This document shows positions 54,613 through 64,000 of a stretch of 64,000 bases of DNA, one piece after another. Where the stretch lies: positions 14,687-78,686 of the forward strand of contig NZ_JAUYNX010000015.1 in assembly GCF_030704825.1 (NCBI RefSeq), written 5' to 3'. The translations under genes were made by a program, and so were the position numbers. The DNA comes from Brevundimonas sp. (lineage in GTDB: Bacteria > Pseudomonadota > Alphaproteobacteria > Caulobacterales > Caulobacteraceae). The notes below the pieces were generated by a model. The model was not told the origin of the DNA. It worked only from the letters and a program-made list of their open reading frames with translations, and searched no databases. The number at the start of each line of letters is the position of its first letter. Position 1 is the stretch's first letter.

Positions 54613-54810
54613 ATGACAGACAATTCCAATCCTCCCGGCAAGCCGCCCAAGGGCGGCGCAGGCCTGGAGGAAGCGCGACTTCGCCAGCAGGCCATCGGCG
54701 TCAAGCTGCGCCACATGTTCGACGAGGTCGTGAACGAGCCGGTGCCGGACGAGTTTCTCGATATCCTGCGCCGCGCCGACGACCGGGCCTCCGGCGAGGG
54801 CGGCTCATGA
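54613..54810 (+). CDS. nepR: Anti-sigma factor NepR
   Basis: QQAIGVKLRHMFDEVVNEPVPDEFLDIL; coupled to the sigma factor gene. Confidence 0.92.
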   Translation: MTDNSNPPGKPPKGGAGLEEARLRQQAIGVKLRHMFDEVVNEPVPDEFLDILRRADDRASGEGGS

Positions 54811-55418
54811 GCGGAACCTCCAGTCCGCCGCCGAAACCGCCCTCAGCCGACGACGACGCCTTCAAGCGGGAGCTCGTCACGCTGATTCCACATCTGCGGG
54901 CTTTCGCGCGCACCCTCACCGGCGATCCCACGGCGGCGGACGATCTCGCCCAGGACGCCATGATGAAGGCGTGGGACGCGCGGGCCAGCTACCAGATGGG
55001 CACCAACATGAAGGCCTGGACCTTCATGATCCTGCGCAATCAATTTTACTCGGAAAAGCGCCGCTCGTGGCGCCAGTCGCAGCTGGACCAGGAGGCCGCC
55101 GAACGCACCCTGGTGGCGGTCGACGACCCGGAATCGCCGGTGGCGCTCGACGAGCTTCGGCTGGCCCTGGCCACCCTGCCGGAAGAGCAGCGCGAGGCCC
55201 TGATCCTGGTCGGCGCCGGCGGCTTCGCCTACGAGGAGGCGGCCGAAATCTGCCAATGCGCCGTGGGTACGGTGAAGAGCCGTGTGTCGCGGGCGCGCAA
55301 GGCCCTGCAGGCCACGCTGGAAAAGGGTGGATACGCCCGCGACGGTCGCGCCGCGGGCGACGCCATGCGATCGATCCTGGCCGCCGCGGACCGCCTGAGC
55401 AGCGTCCGGCAAGGCTGA
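54807..55418 (+). CDS. sigT: ECF sigma factor EcfG/SigT
   Basis: LRAFARTL...ADDLAQD...GTNMKAWTFMILRN...REALILVGAGG..YEEAA...GTVKSRVSRAR. Confidence 0.92.
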   Translation: MSGTSSPPPKPPSADDDAFKRELVTLIPHLRAFARTLTGDPTAADDLAQDAMMKAWDARASYQMGTNMKAWTFMILRNQFYSEKRRSWRQSQLDQEAAERTLVAVDDPESPVALDELRLALATLPEEQREALILVGAGGFAYEEAAEICQCAVGTVKSRVSRARKALQATLEKGGYARDGRAAGDAMRSILAAADRLSSVRQG

Positions 55419-55422
55419 GGCC

Positions 55423-57195
55423 GTGGTCCGGCTTGGCCGAGCGCTCGGACGCGGTCTGGCTCCGCCGAAGTTTCAGGGAATCCGGTTCCGACTGGGCCTG
55501 TGGCTGGCCGCCGCCCTGTTGCCCGTCCTGGTCCTCGGCGCCTTCCAGACCCAGTCGGCCTTCCGCGCCCAGGATCTTGAGCGGCGCTCCGACCTGCAGC
55601 TCGCCGCGGAACGGGCCGCCGCCAGCGCCAAGGCCCGCCTGGACAGCACCGGGGTGTTGCTGCAGGCGCTGCGGCCCGAGGCGCTGGAGGTGTTCTGCGA
55701 GCCGCGCCTGACCGACCTTGTCGAACGGCTGGACGATCTGGACGGTCTGGCCCGATTGACAGCCACGGGTCAGCCCGATTGCGCCTCGGCGAGTCTGGTC
55801 GCCGCGCGGCCGGCCTGGATGGAACAGGCCCGCGCCACGCCGTGGTTCGAGCGGCTTCGCGCGGGTGAGAGTACGGTGCTGGCGCGCGCGCCCGCCACCG
55901 GGGGGCGGCCGCCTGGCCTGATCGTCGCCATCCGGCTGGAACGGCCGATGGGCCGATTCGACGGGGCCATGGCGGCCCTGATCCCGCTGTCGAGCCTGCA
56001 GCCCGATGTCGAGGACCCCGCCTTGCCGGAGGCCTCCGAGGCGGCGCTGACCGACGCCGAAGGCCGGCTTCTCACCGCCACCGACAGCGCTGCCTTCACC
56101 CTGACGGGGGGCGTCAGCCTGACCGGTTGGGTCGAAAGGGCGCGATCGGACGCCTCCGGCATCTTCGAAGCCGAGAACGCCGCCGGCCGCCGGCGGGTCT
56201 ATGCCGGCGCGGCCCTGGCCGGCCGCGACGTCTACGCCCTGCTATCGGCGCCGGCGCCCGGCCTGCTGTCCTGGGCGCGGCTGAACCCGGTCGGCGCCCT
56301 GTTCATGCCGCTGCTGACCTGGCTCATCGCCTTCTCGGCGGTGATGCTGGTCAGCGAGCGGATCGTCATCCGCTGGCTGGGCTATCTGGAGCGGGTCGCG
56401 GCCATCTATGCGAGAGGGCGGTTCTCGGTTCGGCCCGTGCAGGCCATTAACGCCCCCGCCGAGATTCGCGTTCTGGCGCGCACCCTGGACGAACTGGCCG
56501 AATCCATCGCCGCCCGCGACGCGGCCCTGACGGCCTCGCTGGCCGAGAAGGACGCGCTGATGCGCGAGATTCACCACCGGGTGAAGAACAATCTGCAGAT
56601 CATCTCGTCGCTGCTGTCGATGCAGCAGCGCGCCCTGACCGATCCGAAATCCAAGGCGGCCGTGGGCGACACGCGCCAGCGCATCTCGGCGCTCGCCCTG
56701 ATCTACCGCACCCTCTACCAAAGCGACGACCTGCGCTTCGCCGACGCCCGGATCTTCCTGACCGAACTGGTCGGCCAACTGGTCGCCAGCGAGTCCGGGC
56801 GGGGTCAGCTGGTCACCTCGTCGGTCGAGGCCGATTCCCTCGTGGTCGATCCGGACAAGCTGGCCCCCCTGGCCCTGTGGCTGGTCGAAGCGGTCACCAA
56901 CGCCCAGAAGCACGCCTTCGCCGGACGCGGCGGCGATCTGAAAGTGCGTTTCTCGGTGCGGGGCGACACCAGCGTGCTGGAGGTGCAGGATGACGGGCCG
57001 GGCGTCAGCGAGACCCTCCGCGCCGGCGTCGGCCGCACCCTGATGGGCGCCTTCGCCAAACAGTTGCGCGGCGAGGTGGAAATGGTTCCGGCGGAGGGTG
57101 GCGGGACGATCGCCCGGATGACCTTCGCCACGCCCGAGGCCGTGGCCCCGACGGACCCGGCTGATCTTGGAACCCCGGCCGGTCCGCGACGTTGA
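55423..57195 (+). CDS. phyK: HisKA_2 membrane sensor kinase of the general stress response (PhyK-like)
   Basis: EIHHRVKNNLQ H-box; two TM segments with a periplasmic domain carrying two Cys; position directly after sigT. Confidence 0.75.
   Translation: MVRLGRALGRGLAPPKFQGIRFRLGLWLAAALLPVLVLGAFQTQSAFRAQDLERRSDLQLAAERAAASAKARLDSTGVLLQALRPEALEVFCEPRLTDLVERLDDLDGLARLTATGQPDCASASLVAARPAWMEQARATPWFERLRAGESTVLARAPATGGRPPGLIVAIRLERPMGRFDGAMAALIPLSSLQPDVEDPALPEASEAALTDAEGRLLTATDSAAFTLTGGVSLTGWVERARSDASGIFEAENAAGRRRVYAGAALAGRDVYALLSAPAPGLLSWARLNPVGALFMPLLTWLIAFSAVMLVSERIVIRWLGYLERVAAIYARGRFSVRPVQAINAPAEIRVLARTLDELAESIAARDAALTASLAEKDALMREIHHRVKNNLQIISSLLSMQQRALTDPKSKAAVGDTRQRISALALIYRTLYQSDDLRFADARIFLTELVGQLVASESGRGQLVTSSVEADSLVVDPDKLAPLALWLVEAVTNAQKHAFAGRGGDLKVRFSVRGDTSVLEVQDDGPGVSETLRAGVGRTLMGAFAKQLRGEVEMVPAEGGGTIARMTFATPEAVAPTDPADLGTPAGPRR
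57169..57193 (+). promoter_or_regulatory. SigT/EcfG promoter of the entericidin gene, inside the kinase 3' end
   Basis: GGAAC-N16-CGTT. Confidence 0.8.
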
Positions 57196-57580: not shown

Positions 57581-59245
57581 ATGACGGATGCGGCGGACGC
57601 GAAGGCGGGCCCGGGCCTGAAGACGGTGGTGATCGCCTCGGCGGCCGGCACGGCGTTTGAATGGTACGACTTCTTCGTCTTCGGATCGCTGACCACCATC
57701 ATCGCCCGGCATTTCTTCGCCGACGCCGGCGAGACCGTCGCCTACATCATGGCACTGCTGACCTTCGGTCTCGGCTTCGTGGTCCGGCCGCTGGGGGCCC
57801 TGGTGTTCGGCTGGTTCGGCGACCGGACCGGACGCAAGACCACCTTCCTTGTCACCATCACCCTGATGGGTCTGGCGACCGTGGCGATCGGTCTGCTGCC
57901 CGACTACGGCCAGATCGGTCTCGCGGCCCCGATCCTGCTGCTGATCATGCGGATGCTGCAGGGCTTCGCCCTGGGCGGGGAGTACGGCGGGGCGGCCATC
58001 TATGTGGCCGAGCATTCGCCGCCGAAGAAGCGCGGCCTGCTGACCGGCTGGATCCAGACCACGGCCGCCTTCGGTCTGATCGGGGCGCTGGCGGTGATCC
58101 TGGTCACGCGGGGGATCGTCGGCATCGAGGCCTTCGACGAATGGGGCTGGCGCATCCCCTTCCTGCTGTCGGCCCTGCTGCTGGCCGTATCGCTGTGGAT
58201 TCGGCTGAGACTCAACGAGAGCCCGGCCTATCAGCGCATGGAGGCCGAGGCGTCCGATACCGATCACCGCGCGCCTTACAAGGAGGCCTTCTTCCAGTGG
58301 GACAACGGCCGGTTCGTGCTGATCGCCCTGTTCGGCATCATGATCGCCCAGGGGGCGGTCTGGTACTGCGGCTATTTCTACACCCGGTTCTTCATGGAGC
58401 GGGTGCTGAAGGTCGACACCAACACCGTCGACCAGCTGGTCCTGGCGGTGACGGTGGCCTCGGCGGGGCTGTACGTCTTCTTCGGCTGGCTGTCGGACCG
58501 GCTGGGGCGCAAGCCGGTGATGCTGTTCGGCATGATCCTGGCGCTGGTCGCCTTCTTCCCGGGTTTCCATGCCTTGACCCGCGCCGCCAATCCGGCCCTG
58601 GCCGAGGCCCAGGCCGCCGCGCCCGTGACCGTGGTCGCCGATCCCGCCACCTGCGCCCTGCAGTTCGATCCGATCGGCAAGGCGGCCTTCGCCAGCTCCT
58701 GCGACATCGCCAAAAGCGTGCTGTCGAACGCGGGGGTCTCCTATGACAACGTCGAGGCGATCGCCGGCTCGGTGGCCAGCGTCCGCATCGGCTCGACGGA
58801 GGTGGTCTCGGTCGAGGGCGCCGGCCTGTCGCCCGTTGACCTGAAGGCTGCGCGGGCCGGGGTTGAGACGCGGATCAAGGCGGTCCTGGTGGAGGCCGGC
58901 TATCCGGCGAAGGCCGATCCGGCGCGGATCAACATGCCCCTGGTCTTCGCCATCCTGATGATCTTCATGGTCGCGGCGACGGCCCTGTACGGACCCCAGG
59001 CGGCGGCCCTGGTCGAGCTGTTTCCGACGCGGGTGCGCTACACCGCCATGAGTCTGCCCTACAACATCGGCACCGGCTGGGTCGGCGGCTTGCTGCCGGC
59101 CGCCAGTTTCGCCTTGGTGGCCTGGTCGGGGAACATCTATTTCGGCCTCTGGTATGCCGTGGCCTTCACCGCCGTGGCCGCCGTCGTCGCCCTGATCTGG
59201 CTGCCCGAAACCCGGGCCCGGGATCTGCACACGATCGGAACCTGA
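57581..59245 (+). CDS. MFS transporter, metabolite:H+ symporter (MHS) family
   Basis: GTAFEWYDFF, RPLGALVFGWFGDRTGRK, QGFALGGEYGG, ELFPTRVRYTAMS. Confidence 0.88.
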   Translation: MTDAADAKAGPGLKTVVIASAAGTAFEWYDFFVFGSLTTIIARHFFADAGETVAYIMALLTFGLGFVVRPLGALVFGWFGDRTGRKTTFLVTITLMGLATVAIGLLPDYGQIGLAAPILLLIMRMLQGFALGGEYGGAAIYVAEHSPPKKRGLLTGWIQTTAAFGLIGALAVILVTRGIVGIEAFDEWGWRIPFLLSALLLAVSLWIRLRLNESPAYQRMEAEASDTDHRAPYKEAFFQWDNGRFVLIALFGIMIAQGAVWYCGYFYTRFFMERVLKVDTNTVDQLVLAVTVASAGLYVFFGWLSDRLGRKPVMLFGMILALVAFFPGFHALTRAANPALAEAQAAAPVTVVADPATCALQFDPIGKAAFASSCDIAKSVLSNAGVSYDNVEAIAGSVASVRIGSTEVVSVEGAGLSPVDLKAARAGVETRIKAVLVEAGYPAKADPARINMPLVFAILMIFMVAATALYGPQAAALVELFPTRVRYTAMSLPYNIGTGWVGGLLPAASFALVAWSGNIYFGLWYAVAFTAVAAVVALIWLPETRARDLHTIGT

Positions 59246-59253
59246 GCGACGGT

Positions 59254-59333
59254 CGTTCGCGGGCGGTCATCCACGCTTCGCGAACGAACAGGCGCCGCCG
59301 TTCGCGAACGGCGCGCGCCCGAACCCGCAAACG
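59254..59333 (+). promoter_or_regulatory. Four iterated TTCGCGAACG-like boxes, candidate LytTR binding sites
   Basis: Boxes start at 59256, 59277, 59301 and 59324 (spacing 21, 24, 23). Confidence 0.5.
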
Positions 59334-59416
59334 ACGTGGCGGGGCGCCGGGCAGCGCTCCACGGTCGGTCCATCGAAACGGCCCGGTCGTCGGGCCTCGC
59401 ACGAAGGACACGTCTC

Positions 59417-59851
59417 ATGATCCGCCTCGCCTCCGCCGCCGTCGCCCTGCTGCTCACCGCCGCCCCCGCCTTGGCCCAGTCGGCCGACGATTCCAGGATC
59501 GTCCTGACCTTCGAGACCGGCGCCCGCACCGGCATGGTCATGATCGCCCTGTACGACTCCGCCGGCGCCTTCGACGGCTCGGGCGCCGGCGACGGGGCGG
59601 TCGCCCGCACCGCCATCTCCGCTTCGGGCCGCGTCGTCGCCGCCTTCGATAACCTGCCCGCCGGCGACTATGCGGTGAAGGCGTTCCACGACGTCAACGG
59701 CGACGGTGAGATGAACACCAATCCGTTCGGCATGCCGACCGAACCCTATGCCTTCTCGAACAACGCCGTCGGCAACATGGGCCCCGCCCGCTGGGACCGC
59801 GCCCATTTCGCCGTCTCGGGCGAGACCGCCCAGACCATCAACATCCGATAA
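59417..59851 (+). CDS. DUF2141 family secreted protein
   Basis: Signal peptide (PALA); F.NLP.G.YAV..FHD.NG.GE...N.FGMP.E.Y.FSNN...GP..W..A.F. Confidence 0.85.
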   Translation: MIRLASAAVALLLTAAPALAQSADDSRIVLTFETGARTGMVMIALYDSAGAFDGSGAGDGAVARTAISASGRVVAAFDNLPAGDYAVKAFHDVNGDGEMNTNPFGMPTEPYAFSNNAVGNMGPARWDRAHFAVSGETAQTINIR

Positions 59852-59937
59852 GCAGCCTGCCGCCGGCCGCGCGTTCCCGCCTGAGGGGGGAATGACGTGG
59901 CTCGCTGCTTGAGACCGCGCCCATCAGGAGATTTCCC

Positions 59938-61398
59938 ATGCACGCTTCCCGCCGCAACTTCCTGATGGGCGCCGCCGCCCTGTCAGCCGCCGTCGTCACG
60001 CCGGAAACGGTCCGCGCCATGGCCGCGATGCAGGCCACCGCCGACTGGGCCCTGGCCACCGCCGACCTCGAGGCCGATGTCGTCCCCCGTGCCATGCGGC
60101 TGGTCCACGGCCGCGCCCCGGCCGGCCTGACCGGGACCCTGTTCCGCAACGGCCCGGCCAAATTCCGCCGCCCCGGCGGCTCGGCCACCCACTGGTTCGA
60201 CGGCGACGGCCTGATGCGGGCTTTCCGCGTCGCCGACGGCCAGGTGACGCTCGACGCCCGCTTCGCCGACACCCCCAAACGCCGCTGGGAGTCCGAGATT
60301 GACGCCGTCGTCACCCCCGGCTTCGGCACCGCCGGCGACGCCCGCGCCCGCATCGGCGGCACGGATGACGCCAACGCCGCCAACACCGCCGTCATGGTCG
60401 CGGGCGACGAAGTCTGGGCCCTCTGGGAGGGCGGCTCGCCGACGGCCATGGACGCGTCCGACCTGTCGACCAAACGCTTCGTCGCCCTGCGCGACGACCT
60501 CAAGGGCATGCCCTTCCAGGCCCACCCGCGCTATGACCCCGACGGCACGATCTGGAACATCGGCCTGAACGGCGGCCAGGCCATCGTCTGGCGGCTCAAC
60601 GCCGACCGCAGCCTGCACACGGCGGACGTCATCGACCTGCCGCGCGCCAGCTTCATGCACGACTTCACAGCCACGGCGCGGCATCTGATCTTCGTGCTTC
60701 AGCCCTGGGTCCATGACCGCCAGGGCATGCCTTACGCCGCGCGCTTCGCCTGGAAGCCCGAGCTGGGGACCCAGATCATGGTCGTCGACAAGGCCGACCT
60801 CTCGCGCCGCCGGATCTTCGAACTGCCGACCTTCAGTTATTTCCATCTCGGCGACGCCTGGGAGGACGCCTCCGGGACGATCCGCTTCGACGTCGCCGCC
60901 GGCAAGGACGTGGCCTTCGCCATCGAGGGCGCCCGCGTGCTGGTCGAACAGCGCGGTTCGGTGCCCGGCGAGCACGCCGTGCTGAACCTGATTACTCTGC
61001 ATACGGACGGCCGGGCCGAAATGGCCTCCAGCGGCGTCACGGCGGAGTTCCCGAAAAACGATCCCCGCCGCGCCGGCCTGCCGCGCCGTCTCACCGCCCA
61101 CGTCGCCGGCGAACGACCGGACCGGCCGCTGCCGACCGGTCTGGCGACCTGGGACTGGGACTCGGGAAGGTCCGACTATTTCAACTTCGGCGACACGCAG
61201 ATCGTGGAGGAGGCCGTCTTCGTGCCGCGCGGCCCGAACGAGACCGACGCCTGGCTGATCGCCCCCTCGATCAATCTGCGCGAAGGCGTCACCGAACTGC
61301 ACGCCTTCGACGCCGCCCGCGTCTCCGCCGGCCCGGTCGCCACCTGGCGCGCCGACGTGGCCCTGCCGGCCGGCTTCCACGGGGTGTGGGCCGGCTAG
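59938..61398 (+). CDS. Carotenoid oxygenase (RPE65/CCD/LSD) family dioxygenase with Tat signal
   Basis: SRRNFL twin-arginine motif; GTLFRNGP, HWFDGDG; four Fe-His motifs (AHP, MHDF, FHL, FHG); EEAVFVP. Confidence 0.88.
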   Translation: MHASRRNFLMGAAALSAAVVTPETVRAMAAMQATADWALATADLEADVVPRAMRLVHGRAPAGLTGTLFRNGPAKFRRPGGSATHWFDGDGLMRAFRVADGQVTLDARFADTPKRRWESEIDAVVTPGFGTAGDARARIGGTDDANAANTAVMVAGDEVWALWEGGSPTAMDASDLSTKRFVALRDDLKGMPFQAHPRYDPDGTIWNIGLNGGQAIVWRLNADRSLHTADVIDLPRASFMHDFTATARHLIFVLQPWVHDRQGMPYAARFAWKPELGTQIMVVDKADLSRRRIFELPTFSYFHLGDAWEDASGTIRFDVAAGKDVAFAIEGARVLVEQRGSVPGEHAVLNLITLHTDGRAEMASSGVTAEFPKNDPRRAGLPRRLTAHVAGERPDRPLPTGLATWDWDSGRSDYFNFGDTQIVEEAVFVPRGPNETDAWLIAPSINLREGVTELHAFDAARVSAGPVATWRADVALPAGFHGVWAG

Positions 61399-62174
61399 TA
61401 CCAGCCAGCCTCGCGCAGGGCCTTGGCATAGCGTCGGCTGACCGGGGCCTCGACGCCGCCCTCCAGCGTCAGGGTCGCCCGGCCGTCGCCGCGGCTGACG
61501 CCCCGTACCGCGTCCTTCGCGACCCACCAGCTGCGATGCGTCTGCGCCCCCTCCAGCCCCTCCAGTTCGGCCAGGGCGTCGGACAGCCGCATCAGGATCA
61601 GGTCCGAGCCGCGATCGGTGTGGATGCGCAGATAATGGTCCTCCGACTGGACCGCCCGGACGACCGCGCCCTTCAGCCTGAACGGCAGCCGGTCGATGAA
61701 CCGGGCCGGCTTCGCCCCGGGCGCCGCGGCATGTGTCTGCACCGGCGTCCGCGCCAGAAAGACGTTCAGGGCGCTCAGCGAACCCGTCACGATCATCACC
61801 GGCCCGAGGAAGTCGGGAAGCCGCGCCAGGACGATCGTCCGGTCATCGTCGAAGAACCGGCTCGTGATCCCCCAGACCATCACCGCCAGTGGCCCCGAGA
61901 TCACCAGGGTCAGGGCCAGGACCGCCAGCCAGGGTCGCCGGTCCATGTCCACACGCCGTTCGACCAGCCGCGAGCACAGATGCCCCCAGGACGCCCCGAT
62001 CAGCATCATCGGCAGCCAGTAGGTCAGCCGAAACAGCAGCGAGGTCTCGCCCATGCCGAAAGCCCCGGTGAGGGCCAGAACGACGCCTCCGGCCAGGGCC
62101 ACGGAGAGGCCGCGCAGCAGGTTCCTGTCGACCTCGAAGCGGACGACGTTCTGCGGCGTCTCCCGCTCGCTCAC
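61395..62174 (-). CDS. Membrane-anchored LytTR-domain transcriptional regulator
   Basis: GTG 62174 overlaps the TetR stop; four hydrophobic helices, then SEDHYLRIHT...LMRLSDAL..L...G.QTHRSWWV. Confidence 0.85.
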   Translation of the reverse strand: MSERETPQNVVRFEVDRNLLRGLSVALAGGVVLALTGAFGMGETSLLFRLTYWLPMMLIGASWGHLCSRLVERRVDMDRRPWLAVLALTLVISGPLAVMVWGITSRFFDDDRTIVLARLPDFLGPVMIVTGSLSALNVFLARTPVQTHAAAPGAKPARFIDRLPFRLKGAVVRAVQSEDHYLRIHTDRGSDLILMRLSDALAELEGLEGAQTHRSWWVAKDAVRGVSRGDGRATLTLEGGVEAPVSRRYAKALREAGWY

Positions 62175-62884: not shown

Positions 62885-62968
62885 GGCCCATGACTAGGCC
62901 GCAATCCCCCGCCTGTGCAACGGCGCCACAGGTCCGGGCGGACGGTGACGCGGGGGAAGCTGCGCCGT

Positions 62969-63023: not shown

Positions 63024-63062
63024 AAAGCGTCGTCGGCTGGAAACACAGAATTGGGGCTACCT

Positions 63063-64000
63063 ATGAATCGTTACGTGAAGACCGCCTTGCTCGCCGGCGC
63101 CGCCTGGAGCGCGCTGTCCACCTTCGCCATGGCCCAGGACGCACCGCCGCAGGACGGCGCGTCGGCCCTTGATGACGTCGTCGTCAGCGCCCGCCGCCGC
63201 GACGAACTGCTGAAGGACGTGCCGATCTCGGTCTCGGCCATCGGCGAGGAACGTCTGGAGCAGACCGGCGCCTCGGACATCACGGCCCTGCAGCAGCAGA
63301 CCCCGAACGCGACCGTGCAGGTCGCGCGCGGCTCGAACTCGACCCTGATCTCCTTCATCCGCGGCGTGGGCCAGCAGGATCCGCTGTGGGGCTTCGAGCC
63401 CGGCGTGGGCCTGTATGTCGATGACGTCTACGTCGCCCGCCCCCAGGGCGCCGTGCTGGACATCTACGACGTCCAGCGCATCGAGGTGCTGCGCGGACCG
63501 CAGGGCTCGCTCTACGGCCGCAACACCGTCGGCGGCGCGATCAAATATGTCACCAACCGCCTGTCGAACGATCCGGAACTGACGCTGCGCGGCGCCTACG
63601 GCAGCTATAACCAGATCGACCTCATGGCCTCGGGCAGCGTTCCGCTGGCCGATAATTTCCGCGTCGGCGGCGCCATCGCCAGCTATCAGCGCGACGGCTA
63701 CGGAACCAACATCAACACCGGGGCCGAGCACTACAACAAGGACGTCCTGGCCGGCCGGTTGAGCGCGGAATGGGAGCCGGCCGACAACCTGTCCGTCCGC
63801 CTCGCCTATGACCGGGTCCAGGACGATTCCAATCCCCGCCACGGTCACCGCGAAGTGGCCGGCGCGACCCCGGCCGGCGCCGTCCTGCCCAGCGTCTACG
63901 ACACCAACGCCGGGATCGGCGACGACAACTCGGTGATGAACCAGGGCGCCTCGGCGACGATCCAGCTGGATGTGAACGACCACTGGACCTTCAAGTCGAT
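63063..64000 (+). CDS. TonB-dependent receptor (5' part, runs off the window)
   Basis: Signal peptide MNRYVK...AMA; DDVVVSARRR TonB box; plug motif RIEVLRGPQGSLYGRNTVGGAI. Confidence 0.92.
   Translation, partial: MNRYVKTALLAGAAWSALSTFAMAQDAPPQDGASALDDVVVSARRRDELLKDVPISVSAIGEERLEQTGASDITALQQQTPNATVQVARGSNSTLISFIRGVGQQDPLWGFEPGVGLYVDDVYVARPQGAVLDIYDVQRIEVLRGPQGSLYGRNTVGGAIKYVTNRLSNDPELTLRGAYGSYNQIDLMASGSVPLADNFRVGGAIASYQRDGYGTNINTGAEHYNKDVLAGRLSAEWEPADNLSVRLAYDRVQDDSNPRHGHREVAGATPAGAVLPSVYDTNAGIGDDNSVMNQGASATIQLDVNDHWTFKS

Follow-up and report, generated by a model that had tools for sequence, protein, structure and literature searches.

To our knowledge, every characterized enzyme of the carotenoid-oxygenase family is cytoplasmic, plastidial or active at the cytoplasmic face of a membrane. 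Here we analyze a 64-kb window of Brevundimonas sp. DNA (assembly GCF_030704825.1, contig NZ_JAUYNX010000015.1, positions 14,687 to 78,686; "the window" means this whole stretch), for which an original prediction had proposed a periplasmic system made up of an oxygenase of this family exported by twin-arginine translocation (Tat), a Sec-exported DUF2141 partner and a membrane-bound LytTR regulator. As read from the sequence, the core unit is a two-gene operon, a DUF2141 gene (59417-59851, plus strand) followed by the oxygenase gene (59938-61398, plus strand), and gene order in related genomes indicates that the module is real and widely conserved, with DUF2141 as the near-obligate exported partner. 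This kind of enzyme is already known; new here are the Tat-exported member and its pairing with DUF2141. A search of the full-text literature found no description of a native periplasmic carotenoid-oxygenase-family enzyme or of the DUF2141 pairing.

The closest described enzyme is the apocarotenoid oxygenase ACO (Diox1) of Synechocystis (PDB 2BIW), which is the best match of the oxygenase in both sequence and fold and shares its four His ligands, its Glu triad and a Trp-Glu pair. The identity between the two is only ≈24-25%, however, and ACO has no DUF2141 partner. ACO carries no signal peptide and acts at the cytoplasmic face of membranes. The bacterial O2-dependent alkene cleavers LsdA, NOV1, CAO1 and MapADO belong to the same superfamily and have the same fold, but unlike the enzyme described here they have a Tyr/Lys pair in the active site and are cytoplasmic, with neither a Tat signal nor a DUF2141 partner.

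Only one protein of the membrane-LytTR architecture has been studied, namely HigX (CCNA_03131) of Caulobacter crescentus, a membrane-associated, DNA-binding protein with four transmembrane helices that binds envelope-related promoters (PMC13384398). In both HigX and the LytTR protein of our locus, four N-terminal transmembrane helices are joined to a LytTR domain by a short linker of low complexity, and neither has a receiver or a kinase as partner. HigX adjoins ctrA and a COG4188 hydrolase gene and binds the inverted repeat ATGTTASC/GSTACCAT (PMC13384398), whereas the LytTR gene described here adjoins the DUF2141-oxygenase pair or a DUF2306 gene and goes with direct TTCGCG repeats. Neither context nor motif agrees with orthology to HigX, and it is by these two, not by sequence, that we set the proteins apart. 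LytTR proteins of the AlgR/AgrA type are cytoplasmic response regulators driven by kinases, in contrast to the predicted membrane anchoring and putative binding sites of the protein described here.

DUF2141 is known from two other settings: it adjoins crtG in Sphingomonadales (PMC5989583, PMC9241875) and forms domain 5 of the Lpt-associated Bacteroides protein LptZ (bioRxiv 10.64898/2026.10.02.756314). In both it is a member of the same Pfam family, exported and tied to lipophilic envelope molecules, but the protein of our locus is free-standing and paired with an oxygenase. A further point of comparison is PraC, a fungal membrane protein of the DUF2306 family, without which the pramanicin diene is not epoxidized (PMC12895699); haem binding has been predicted for this family (bioRxiv 10.64898/2025.12.11.692455). 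DUF2306 is the partner most often seen with our LytTR group and in other genomes belongs to the oxygenase operon, and PraC acts at C=C bonds in a lipophilic compound, as the oxygenase is predicted to do. PraC is fungal, though, and the LytTR-linked DUF2306 ortholog is missing from the genome studied here.

The Oxygenase and Its Export Signal

The oxygenase gene (59938-61398) encodes a 486-aa protein that matches the RPE65/carotenoid-oxygenase profile PF03055 with 286.4 bits (cut-off 27), its residues 53-485 covering positions 12-468 of the 469 in the profile. His196, His241, His303 and His481, which correspond to the four iron ligands of the family, are invariant in two alignments (A1, with 24 sequences down to 25% identity, and A4). 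The same alignments show Glu164 and Glu425 of the second shell to be invariant and Glu370 to be invariant or nearly so, and Glu164 aligns with Glu150 of ACO. The AlphaFold2 (AF2) model (pLDDT 89.1, pTM 0.87) is a seven-bladed beta-propeller whose best fold match is Synechocystis ACO (TM-score 0.83, E 8.6e-35), with LsdA, CAO1 and NOV1 at TM-scores of 0.76-0.79. ACO and NOV1 were also matched at ~1e-27 among the sequences of the PDB, ACO being the best at 6.6e-28. The protein falls short of the NCBIfam equivalog cut-offs for LigStilDioxAlpha (141.7 against 800), NOV2 (95.8 against 650) and the 8'-apo-carotenoid 13,14-cleaving dioxygenase (120.9 against 675). Taken together, profile, fold and invariant residues predict that the protein is a carotenoid-oxygenase-family beta-propeller with Fe(II) bound by four His.

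The N-terminus, MHASRRNFLMGAAALSAAVV, has a twin-arginine motif at S4-R-R-N-F-L9, followed by the hydrophobic stretch MGAAALSAAVV and then by VRA/MA, a cleavage site of the A-x-A type. An AGGAG sequence lies 8 nt ahead of the ATG, and the AF2 model leaves residues 1-21 disordered, in keeping with a signal peptide. Among 1.84 billion cluster representatives that were scanned, 265 relatives reached E<=1e-30. The best 150 of them yielded 103 full-length sequences, 82 of which have an RR motif near the N-terminus and 99 of which form one clade in the tree (support 0.91). From these sequences the Tat signal is a feature of the whole clade, and the genome encodes TatC (236 bits). Both the textbook Tat signal SRRNFL and the full set of Fe-His motifs named in the original prediction are thus present.

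Three classes of carotenoid oxygenase occur in Caulobacteraceae. The Tat class has the motifs PGFGT and ALWEGG, a second class has the motif ALEE and no N-terminal extension, and the third is genuinely LSD-like (YRNP and KED). DUF2141 adjoins the Tat class alone. In one complete genome (L146) the oxygenase frame contains an internal TAA, and in two contigs of metagenome-assembled genomes (L108 and L112) it is split into pieces; these broken frames may be pseudogenes or assembly errors.

The DUF2141 Partner

The protein encoded at 59417-59851 (144 aa) matches PF09912 with 97.2 bits (cut-off 24.4), and its ATG is preceded at 7 nt by GAAGGA. Its N-terminus, MIRLASAAVALLLTAAPALA/QS, reads as a Sec-type signal without a lipobox, and a signal peptide is also found in the aligned orthologs (alignment A2), in keeping with the Sec export first proposed. 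The mature part contains the conserved loop HDxDGDGxM..NPFGxPxEPyaFSNxA (A2) and is modeled by AF2 as a small beta-sandwich (pLDDT 92.6). A profile search of the PDB sequences gave no match.

Twenty DUF2141 copies that lie away from an oxygenase were collected from Caulobacteraceae. Five of them adjoin LptF/LptG (L167, L169, L170, L177, L184) and one adjoins MMPL (L171); the copy in L184 is co-directional with the lipopolysaccharide-export permease genes at a gap of 4 nt. As an association, the thread shared by these contexts and by crtG and LptZ suggests periplasmic handling of lipophilic envelope molecules, which lends indirect support to the carrier or chaperone role that had been proposed for DUF2141.

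Some Brevundimonas loci have a second, divergent DUF2141 paralog between the LytTR and TetR genes (L004 194-595, L050 9328-9717, L053 9352-9762 and L090 9482-9874), in which the loop takes the form WPxGLPKEAYGFSxDA.

Conservation of the Module

The window has ≈70% G+C, and its lists of open reading frames are full of spurious antisense frames. Neighboring genes were therefore clustered with a filter on third-codon-position G+C (GC3) that counters the antisense frames of high-GC DNA. The comparison covered 96 loci, 16 of them from a sample of 61 genomes of the bacterial family and 80 named loci from GTDB species genomes that span Brevundimonas, Caulobacter, Phenylobacterium, Asticcacaulis, Hyphomonadaceae, Maricaulis, Kordiimonas and many Sphingomonadales.

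Of the 92 loci with sequence ahead of the oxygenase, 91 have DUF2141 as the gene immediately upstream, the sole exception being L085, and a full-length LytTR ortholog with four transmembrane helices is adjacent in 65 of the 96. The LytTR gene is convergent and downstream in Brevundimonas and divergent and upstream elsewhere. The Tat enzyme is encoded in 17 of the 61 family genomes, all of which also have DUF2141, while 23 further genomes have DUF2141 without the Tat enzyme. In a sample of 401 genomes of the phylum, three from outside the class have both, one of them together with LytTR. The three genes thus occur together in Caulobacterales, Sphingomonadales, Hyphomonadaceae and some non-alpha Pseudomonadota, so that the co-occurrence of DUF2141, Tat oxygenase and LytTR, the check proposed with the prediction, holds across several orders.

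All genes and other elements named in the original prediction were found, their positions agreeing with those given there exactly or to within a few bases. No terminator-like site was found between the DUF2141 and oxygenase genes. At the other end of the operon the stop codon of the oxygenase (TAG, 61396-61398) and that of the LytTR gene (61397-61395, minus strand) interlock as CTAG at 61395-61398. The LytTR gene starts with a GTG that overlaps the TGA stop of the TetR gene as GTGA, by which, on sequence, the two genes are translationally coupled, and the TetR gene is divergent from a TonB-dependent receptor gene that starts at 63051. The ends of the convergent oxygenase and LytTR genes are 0-17 nt apart in many Brevundimonas loci (e.g., L045, L048-L050). 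As this leaves no space for a terminator, both transcripts may overlap as antisense RNA.

The LytTR Regulator

The LytTR gene (62174-61395, minus strand; 259 aa from the GTG start) matches PF04397 with 62.8 bits (cut-off 22.6) over residues 195-279 of the 282-aa frame and has no other Pfam domain. Its N-terminal part has hydrophobic segments at about residues 21-40, 45-65, 81-103 and 120-140, followed by a short Ala/Pro linker. Kyte-Doolittle analysis, a crude measure, gave strong cores near residues 30, 92 and 131, a weaker, amphipathic segment at 45-65, and short loops. The protein is predicted to be a membrane-anchored one-component regulator with four helices and no periplasmic domain, which agrees with the convergent four-helix LytTR gene of the prediction.

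A full-length relative (at least 44% identity) was identified in ≈38 of the 61 family genomes, and in the tree the members adjacent to the module and those away from it are interspersed along the taxonomy. Where the LytTR gene lies away from the oxygenase, it forms a divergent pair with the gene for a small DUF2306 membrane protein, near mdh and sucCD, in 10 of 16 loci. DUF2306 is also found inside the oxygenase operon in Caulobacter vibrioides and some Hyphomonadaceae, and several lineages have the operon order DUF2306-DUF2141-oxygenase or DUF2141-oxygenase-DUF2306. Caulobacter crescentus NA1000 (L068) shows the complete series DUF2306-DUF2141-oxygenase-TetR-receptor. An ortholog of the LytTR-linked DUF2306 was looked for in the genome studied here and was not found. 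The adjacency of the LytTR gene and the repeats inherited with it are consistent with the circuit that had been predicted, but the LytTR protein is not a regulator specific to the oxygenase, since elsewhere it pairs with DUF2306.

In Caulobacteraceae without the oxygenase (L120-L135) the LytTR-DUF2306 pair often lies beside genes for GNAT, mdh, sucC, sucD and sucA. This genome has only one other LytTR-domain gene (C23:172325-172606), which lies beside an MFS gene, an acyltransferase-like membrane protein gene and a phenylalanine-hydroxylase-like gene, with no ctrA in view.

Candidate Operators

Upstream of the operon, in line with the LytTR-like repeats that had been predicted there, a triple direct repeat of TTCGCG spans 59255-59308 (plus strand) and ends 109 nt before the DUF2141 start codon. 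Its boxes read GTTCGCG (59255-59261), CTTCGCGAA (59276-59284) and GTTCGCGAA (59300-59308), with TTCGCG starting at 59256, 59277 and 59301, i.e., at spacings of 21 and 24 nt. LytTR domains of the AlgR/AgrA type bind direct repeats roughly two helical turns apart, and the box cCGTTCGCG resembles the AlgR core, CCGTTCGTC. The last two boxes are perfect copies of TTCGCGAA, the only two in the window, and the pair TTCGCGAA-N16-TTCGCGAA is unique in the 3.39-Mb genome, which has 60 single copies.

The element aligns across Brevundimonas species. In 45 of 73 loci a pair of boxes (at most 3 mismatches) precedes DUF2141, compared with 0.2% of shuffled sequences, and a stricter direct-repeat test was positive for 29 of 70 upstream regions and 3 of 140 coding control windows. 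Hyphomonadaceae loci without a TetR gene keep the element almost perfectly (e.g., L097 and L105), Sphingomonadales loci have a 20-21-nt direct repeat of (C)GTTCGCGCA, and the same element is present in the LytTR-DUF2306 intergenic regions of genomes that have no oxygenase (L120, L122 and L123). The element thus tracks the LytTR gene and not TetR or the oxygenase, which is the best available argument for a LytTR operator, and the TTCGCG repeats are a candidate operator of this kind, through which the module would most likely be under LytTR control. TetR is unlikely to be the protein that binds the repeats, because the element is present at a LytTR-DUF2306 region with no TetR gene nearby (L122). 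Genome-wide, a loose model of paired 7-mers gave ≈100 matches, mostly in coding sequence, and is uninformative on a wider LytTR regulon.

A second candidate site is the inverted repeat CCTGTG-N9-CACAGG in the intergenic region between the TetR and TonB-receptor genes (62912-62932). This lineage-specific palindrome, TGTGCAACGGCGCCACA, recurs without change in 11 close Brevundimonas loci (L039-L049, L112) and was not found beyond them; it is a better candidate for a TetR operator than the TTCGCG boxes.

The repeat element is separated from the ribosome-binding site of DUF2141 by a sequence with a G+C-rich hairpin, GGCCCG-GTCGT-CGGGCC (59380-59396), whose stem is kept in several Brevundimonas relatives. 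It has no T-run, so it is not a classical terminator, and may be a structure of the 5'-untranslated region.

Proposed Mechanism and Alternatives

The active site gives some indication of the substrate. Phe129 and Trp163 of the oxygenase sit where stilbene and other aromatic dioxygenases have Tyr and Lys (Y101 and K134 in NOV1), and within the clade position 163 is Trp in 96 of 99 members and Lys in none. In MapADO the corresponding pair (Y136/K169), which binds the phenolic hydroxyl of the substrate, is reported to be essential (PMC12308385). Trp163-Glu164 of the oxygenase matches Trp149-Glu150 of ACO. With 4-hydroxyaryl compounds and, for the reasons given below, the cell's own carotenoids set aside, the residues and gene inventories leave as probable substrate a lipophilic, non-phenolic alkene or polyene that would be imported or reside in the envelope.

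The best explanation of the locus, which we hold to be somewhat probable, is a LytTR-controlled periplasmic system that cleaves such a lipophilic non-phenolic alkene. The oxygenase would fold and take up its iron in the cytoplasm and then be exported by Tat, while DUF2141 would be exported by Sec. In the periplasm, judging from the chemistry of the family and the active-site residues, the oxygenase would split, with O2, a C=C bond in an alkene or polyene that is lipophilic and not phenolic. This substrate would be of the apocarotenoid/carotenoid rather than the stilbene type, and most likely one that the cell does not make as a C40 carotenoid. DUF2141 would, by association, probably present or hold the hydrophobic substrate or place the enzyme at the membrane. 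The LytTR protein, anchored in the inner membrane by its four-helix bundle, would respond to something sensed there, bind the TTCGCG repeats upstream of DUF2141 and so control transcription. Import of the substrate or onward transport of the products might, in Brevundimonas and Caulobacter, fall to the TonB receptor and MFS transporter under TetR control, a weak and lineage-specific part of the scheme.

Several observations weigh against this explanation. The LytTR gene lies away from the module in six of the family-sample genomes that carry the oxygenase, and as its group also occurs in many genomes that have no oxygenase it is not a dedicated regulator. The repeat is degenerate or undetected in ≈40% of the loci. 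In a Foldseek search of the PDB the DUF2141 model matched only generic beta-sandwiches (best E 0.012, TM-score at most 0.53), and a structural calcium site would explain its DxDGDG loop equally well. The missing Tyr/Lys pair, for its part, speaks only against 4-hydroxyaryl substrates and does not thereby establish a polyene.

A more specific version would be surveillance and clearance of the envelope, which we regard as possible but doubtful. Here the LytTR membrane domain would itself sense a polyene dissolved in the inner membrane and induce DUF2141 and the oxygenase, together with a DUF2306 oxygenase in most lineages. The polyenes sensed might be carotenoids or apocarotenoids of neighbors or detritus, or other conjugated alkenes; DUF2141 would be the lipid-handling partner and the Tat-exported oxygenase the cutter. 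If this were true, no carotenoid-oxygenase pathway would have been described from the periplasm before, and DUF2141 and bacterial DUF2306 would each obtain a first function.

Envelope-lipid maintenance would put the weight on the regulator instead: LytTR would sense the state of the membrane and, with DUF2306 in most lineages, drive the oxidation of an endogenous unsaturated envelope lipid, the oxygenase and DUF2141 being an optional periplasmic extension. We consider this unlikely, although the divergent LytTR-DUF2306 pair is the more widespread core and has the same repeat element, and DUF2306 is also part of DUF2141-oxygenase operons in several lineages. A DUF2306 protein is needed for epoxidation of a lipophilic diene (PMC12895699), with haem predicted for the family (bioRxiv 10.64898/2025.12.11.692455), and the paralog HigX binds cell-envelope promoters (PMC13384398). 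DUF2141 paralogs adjoin LptFG or MMPL. Against it, the DUF2306 ortholog is lost in the genome studied here and the oxygenase is kept, from which it follows that the two can act independently. We also know of no conjugated alkene lipid in the envelope of carotenoid-free Caulobacterales.

The stilbene option of the original prediction corresponds to a periplasmic dioxygenase of the lignostilbene/isoeugenol type, to which plant- or lignin-derived 4-hydroxystilbenes or propenylphenols would come through the TonB receptor and whose aldehyde products would be imported by the MFS transporter. Caulobacterales and sphingomonads do live on plant-derived matter. By score the best NCBIfam match is the lignostilbene dioxygenase model, the fold likeness to LsdA, NOV1 and CAO1 nearly equals that to ACO, and the adjacent TonB receptor gene is accompanied by an MFS gene related to aromatic-acid/anion symporters. 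At 141.7, however, the protein scores well short of the equivalog threshold, and the residues that bind the phenolic hydroxyl (PMC12308385) are replaced by Phe129/Trp163. True LSD-like paralogs (YRNP, KED) are present separately in the same bacterial family; they do show Tyr and Lys at these positions and have neither DUF2141 nor an N-terminal extension. The stilbene-type enzyme is disfavored by this replacement, and we judge it improbable.

We think just as little of turnover of, or signaling from, the cell's own carotenoids, in which envelope carotenoids would be trimmed to apocarotenoids with DUF2141 as the carotenoid carrier. The location of DUF2141 next to crtG in Sphingomonadales (PMC5989583, PMC9241875) would fit such a role, as would the apocarotenoid oxygenase as nearest solved relative and the presence of crtI in 6 of the 17 family-sample genomes with the Tat enzyme. 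In the genome studied here, though, no crtI was found above the cut-off (best 73.8 bits against 238) and SQS_PSY gave only a partial match of 100 residues, and own carotenoids are rejected as the substrate in this strain. The remaining 11 of the 17 carriers also lack crtI and 10 crtI-positive genomes of the sample lack the Tat enzyme, which argues that endogenous C40 carotenoids are not the general substrate. Caulobacter vibrioides (L068), too, has the module, yet a control search registered no crtI there. A chance adjacency, or a Tat signal that is a start-codon artefact, is hardly credible even in a genome whose ≈70% G+C yields many long spurious frames, as it is contradicted by the gene order kept in 91 of 92 loci from several orders, by the RR motif in 82 of 103 representatives, by the AGGAG ahead of the ATG and by the disorder of residues 1-21 expected of a signal peptide.

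In the interpretation first put forward, the co-occurrence of the genes, the clade-wide Tat signal and the repeats have thus held up. A substrate of the carotenoid or polyene type would fit the ACO-like residues; stilbenes are disfavored, and the carotenoids made by the cell itself are not the general substrate. On the favored reading of a periplasmic alkene-cleaving system, some hundred 50%-identity clusters, forming one well-supported clade with Tat signals and a near-obligate exported partner, would represent a periplasmic chemistry of alkene cleavage that is so far unexplored, in Proteobacteria common in fresh water, in soil and on plants. The locus offers a testable handle on DUF2141, on the membrane-anchored LytTR regulators of alphaproteobacteria and, in sister genomes, on DUF2306. 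Alkene cleavers that are secreted, need no cofactor and act on compounds other than 4-hydroxyaryl ones may also be of biocatalytic interest.

Flanking Genes

The TetR-family regulator (62884-62171, minus strand; TetR_N and TetR_C_30 in the Pfam and NCBIfam searches) is, as had been predicted, coupled to the LytTR gene and divergent from the TonB-dependent receptor gene. The latter runs on the plus strand from 63051 past the window end at 64000 to ~65261 and is followed by an MFS_1 transporter gene; the plug domain was identified within the window, and the barrel and MFS_1 in locus L119. Neither the receptor nor MFS_1 could be given a specific NCBIfam assignment, all scores being far below the cut-offs. 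Of the 96 loci, ≈34 have TetR, TonB receptor and MFS_1 beside the module, all of them from relatives of Brevundimonas and Caulobacter; the MFS_1 neighbor is kept in 19. The three also occur with LytTR-DUF2306 in genomes that have no oxygenase, and in three such loci (within L120-L135) the TetR gene and a TonB-receptor gene still lie alongside. The association proposed for the locus is therefore present here, but as a general link to the module it does not extend beyond these relatives.

Upstream of the operon lies a gene for a ProP-like MFS transporter (57581-59245, plus strand). It was rejected as a member of the module, as it is kept in only three related loci. Farther upstream, within 54807-57195, the window contains a gene for an ECF-type sigma factor with PhyR_sigma2-like matches and no receiver domain, followed after 4 nt by the gene for a HisKA_2/HWE-type histidine kinase (590 aa) with a Cache-like N-terminal part. 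These two genes resemble a sigma factor/kinase pair of the general-stress type.

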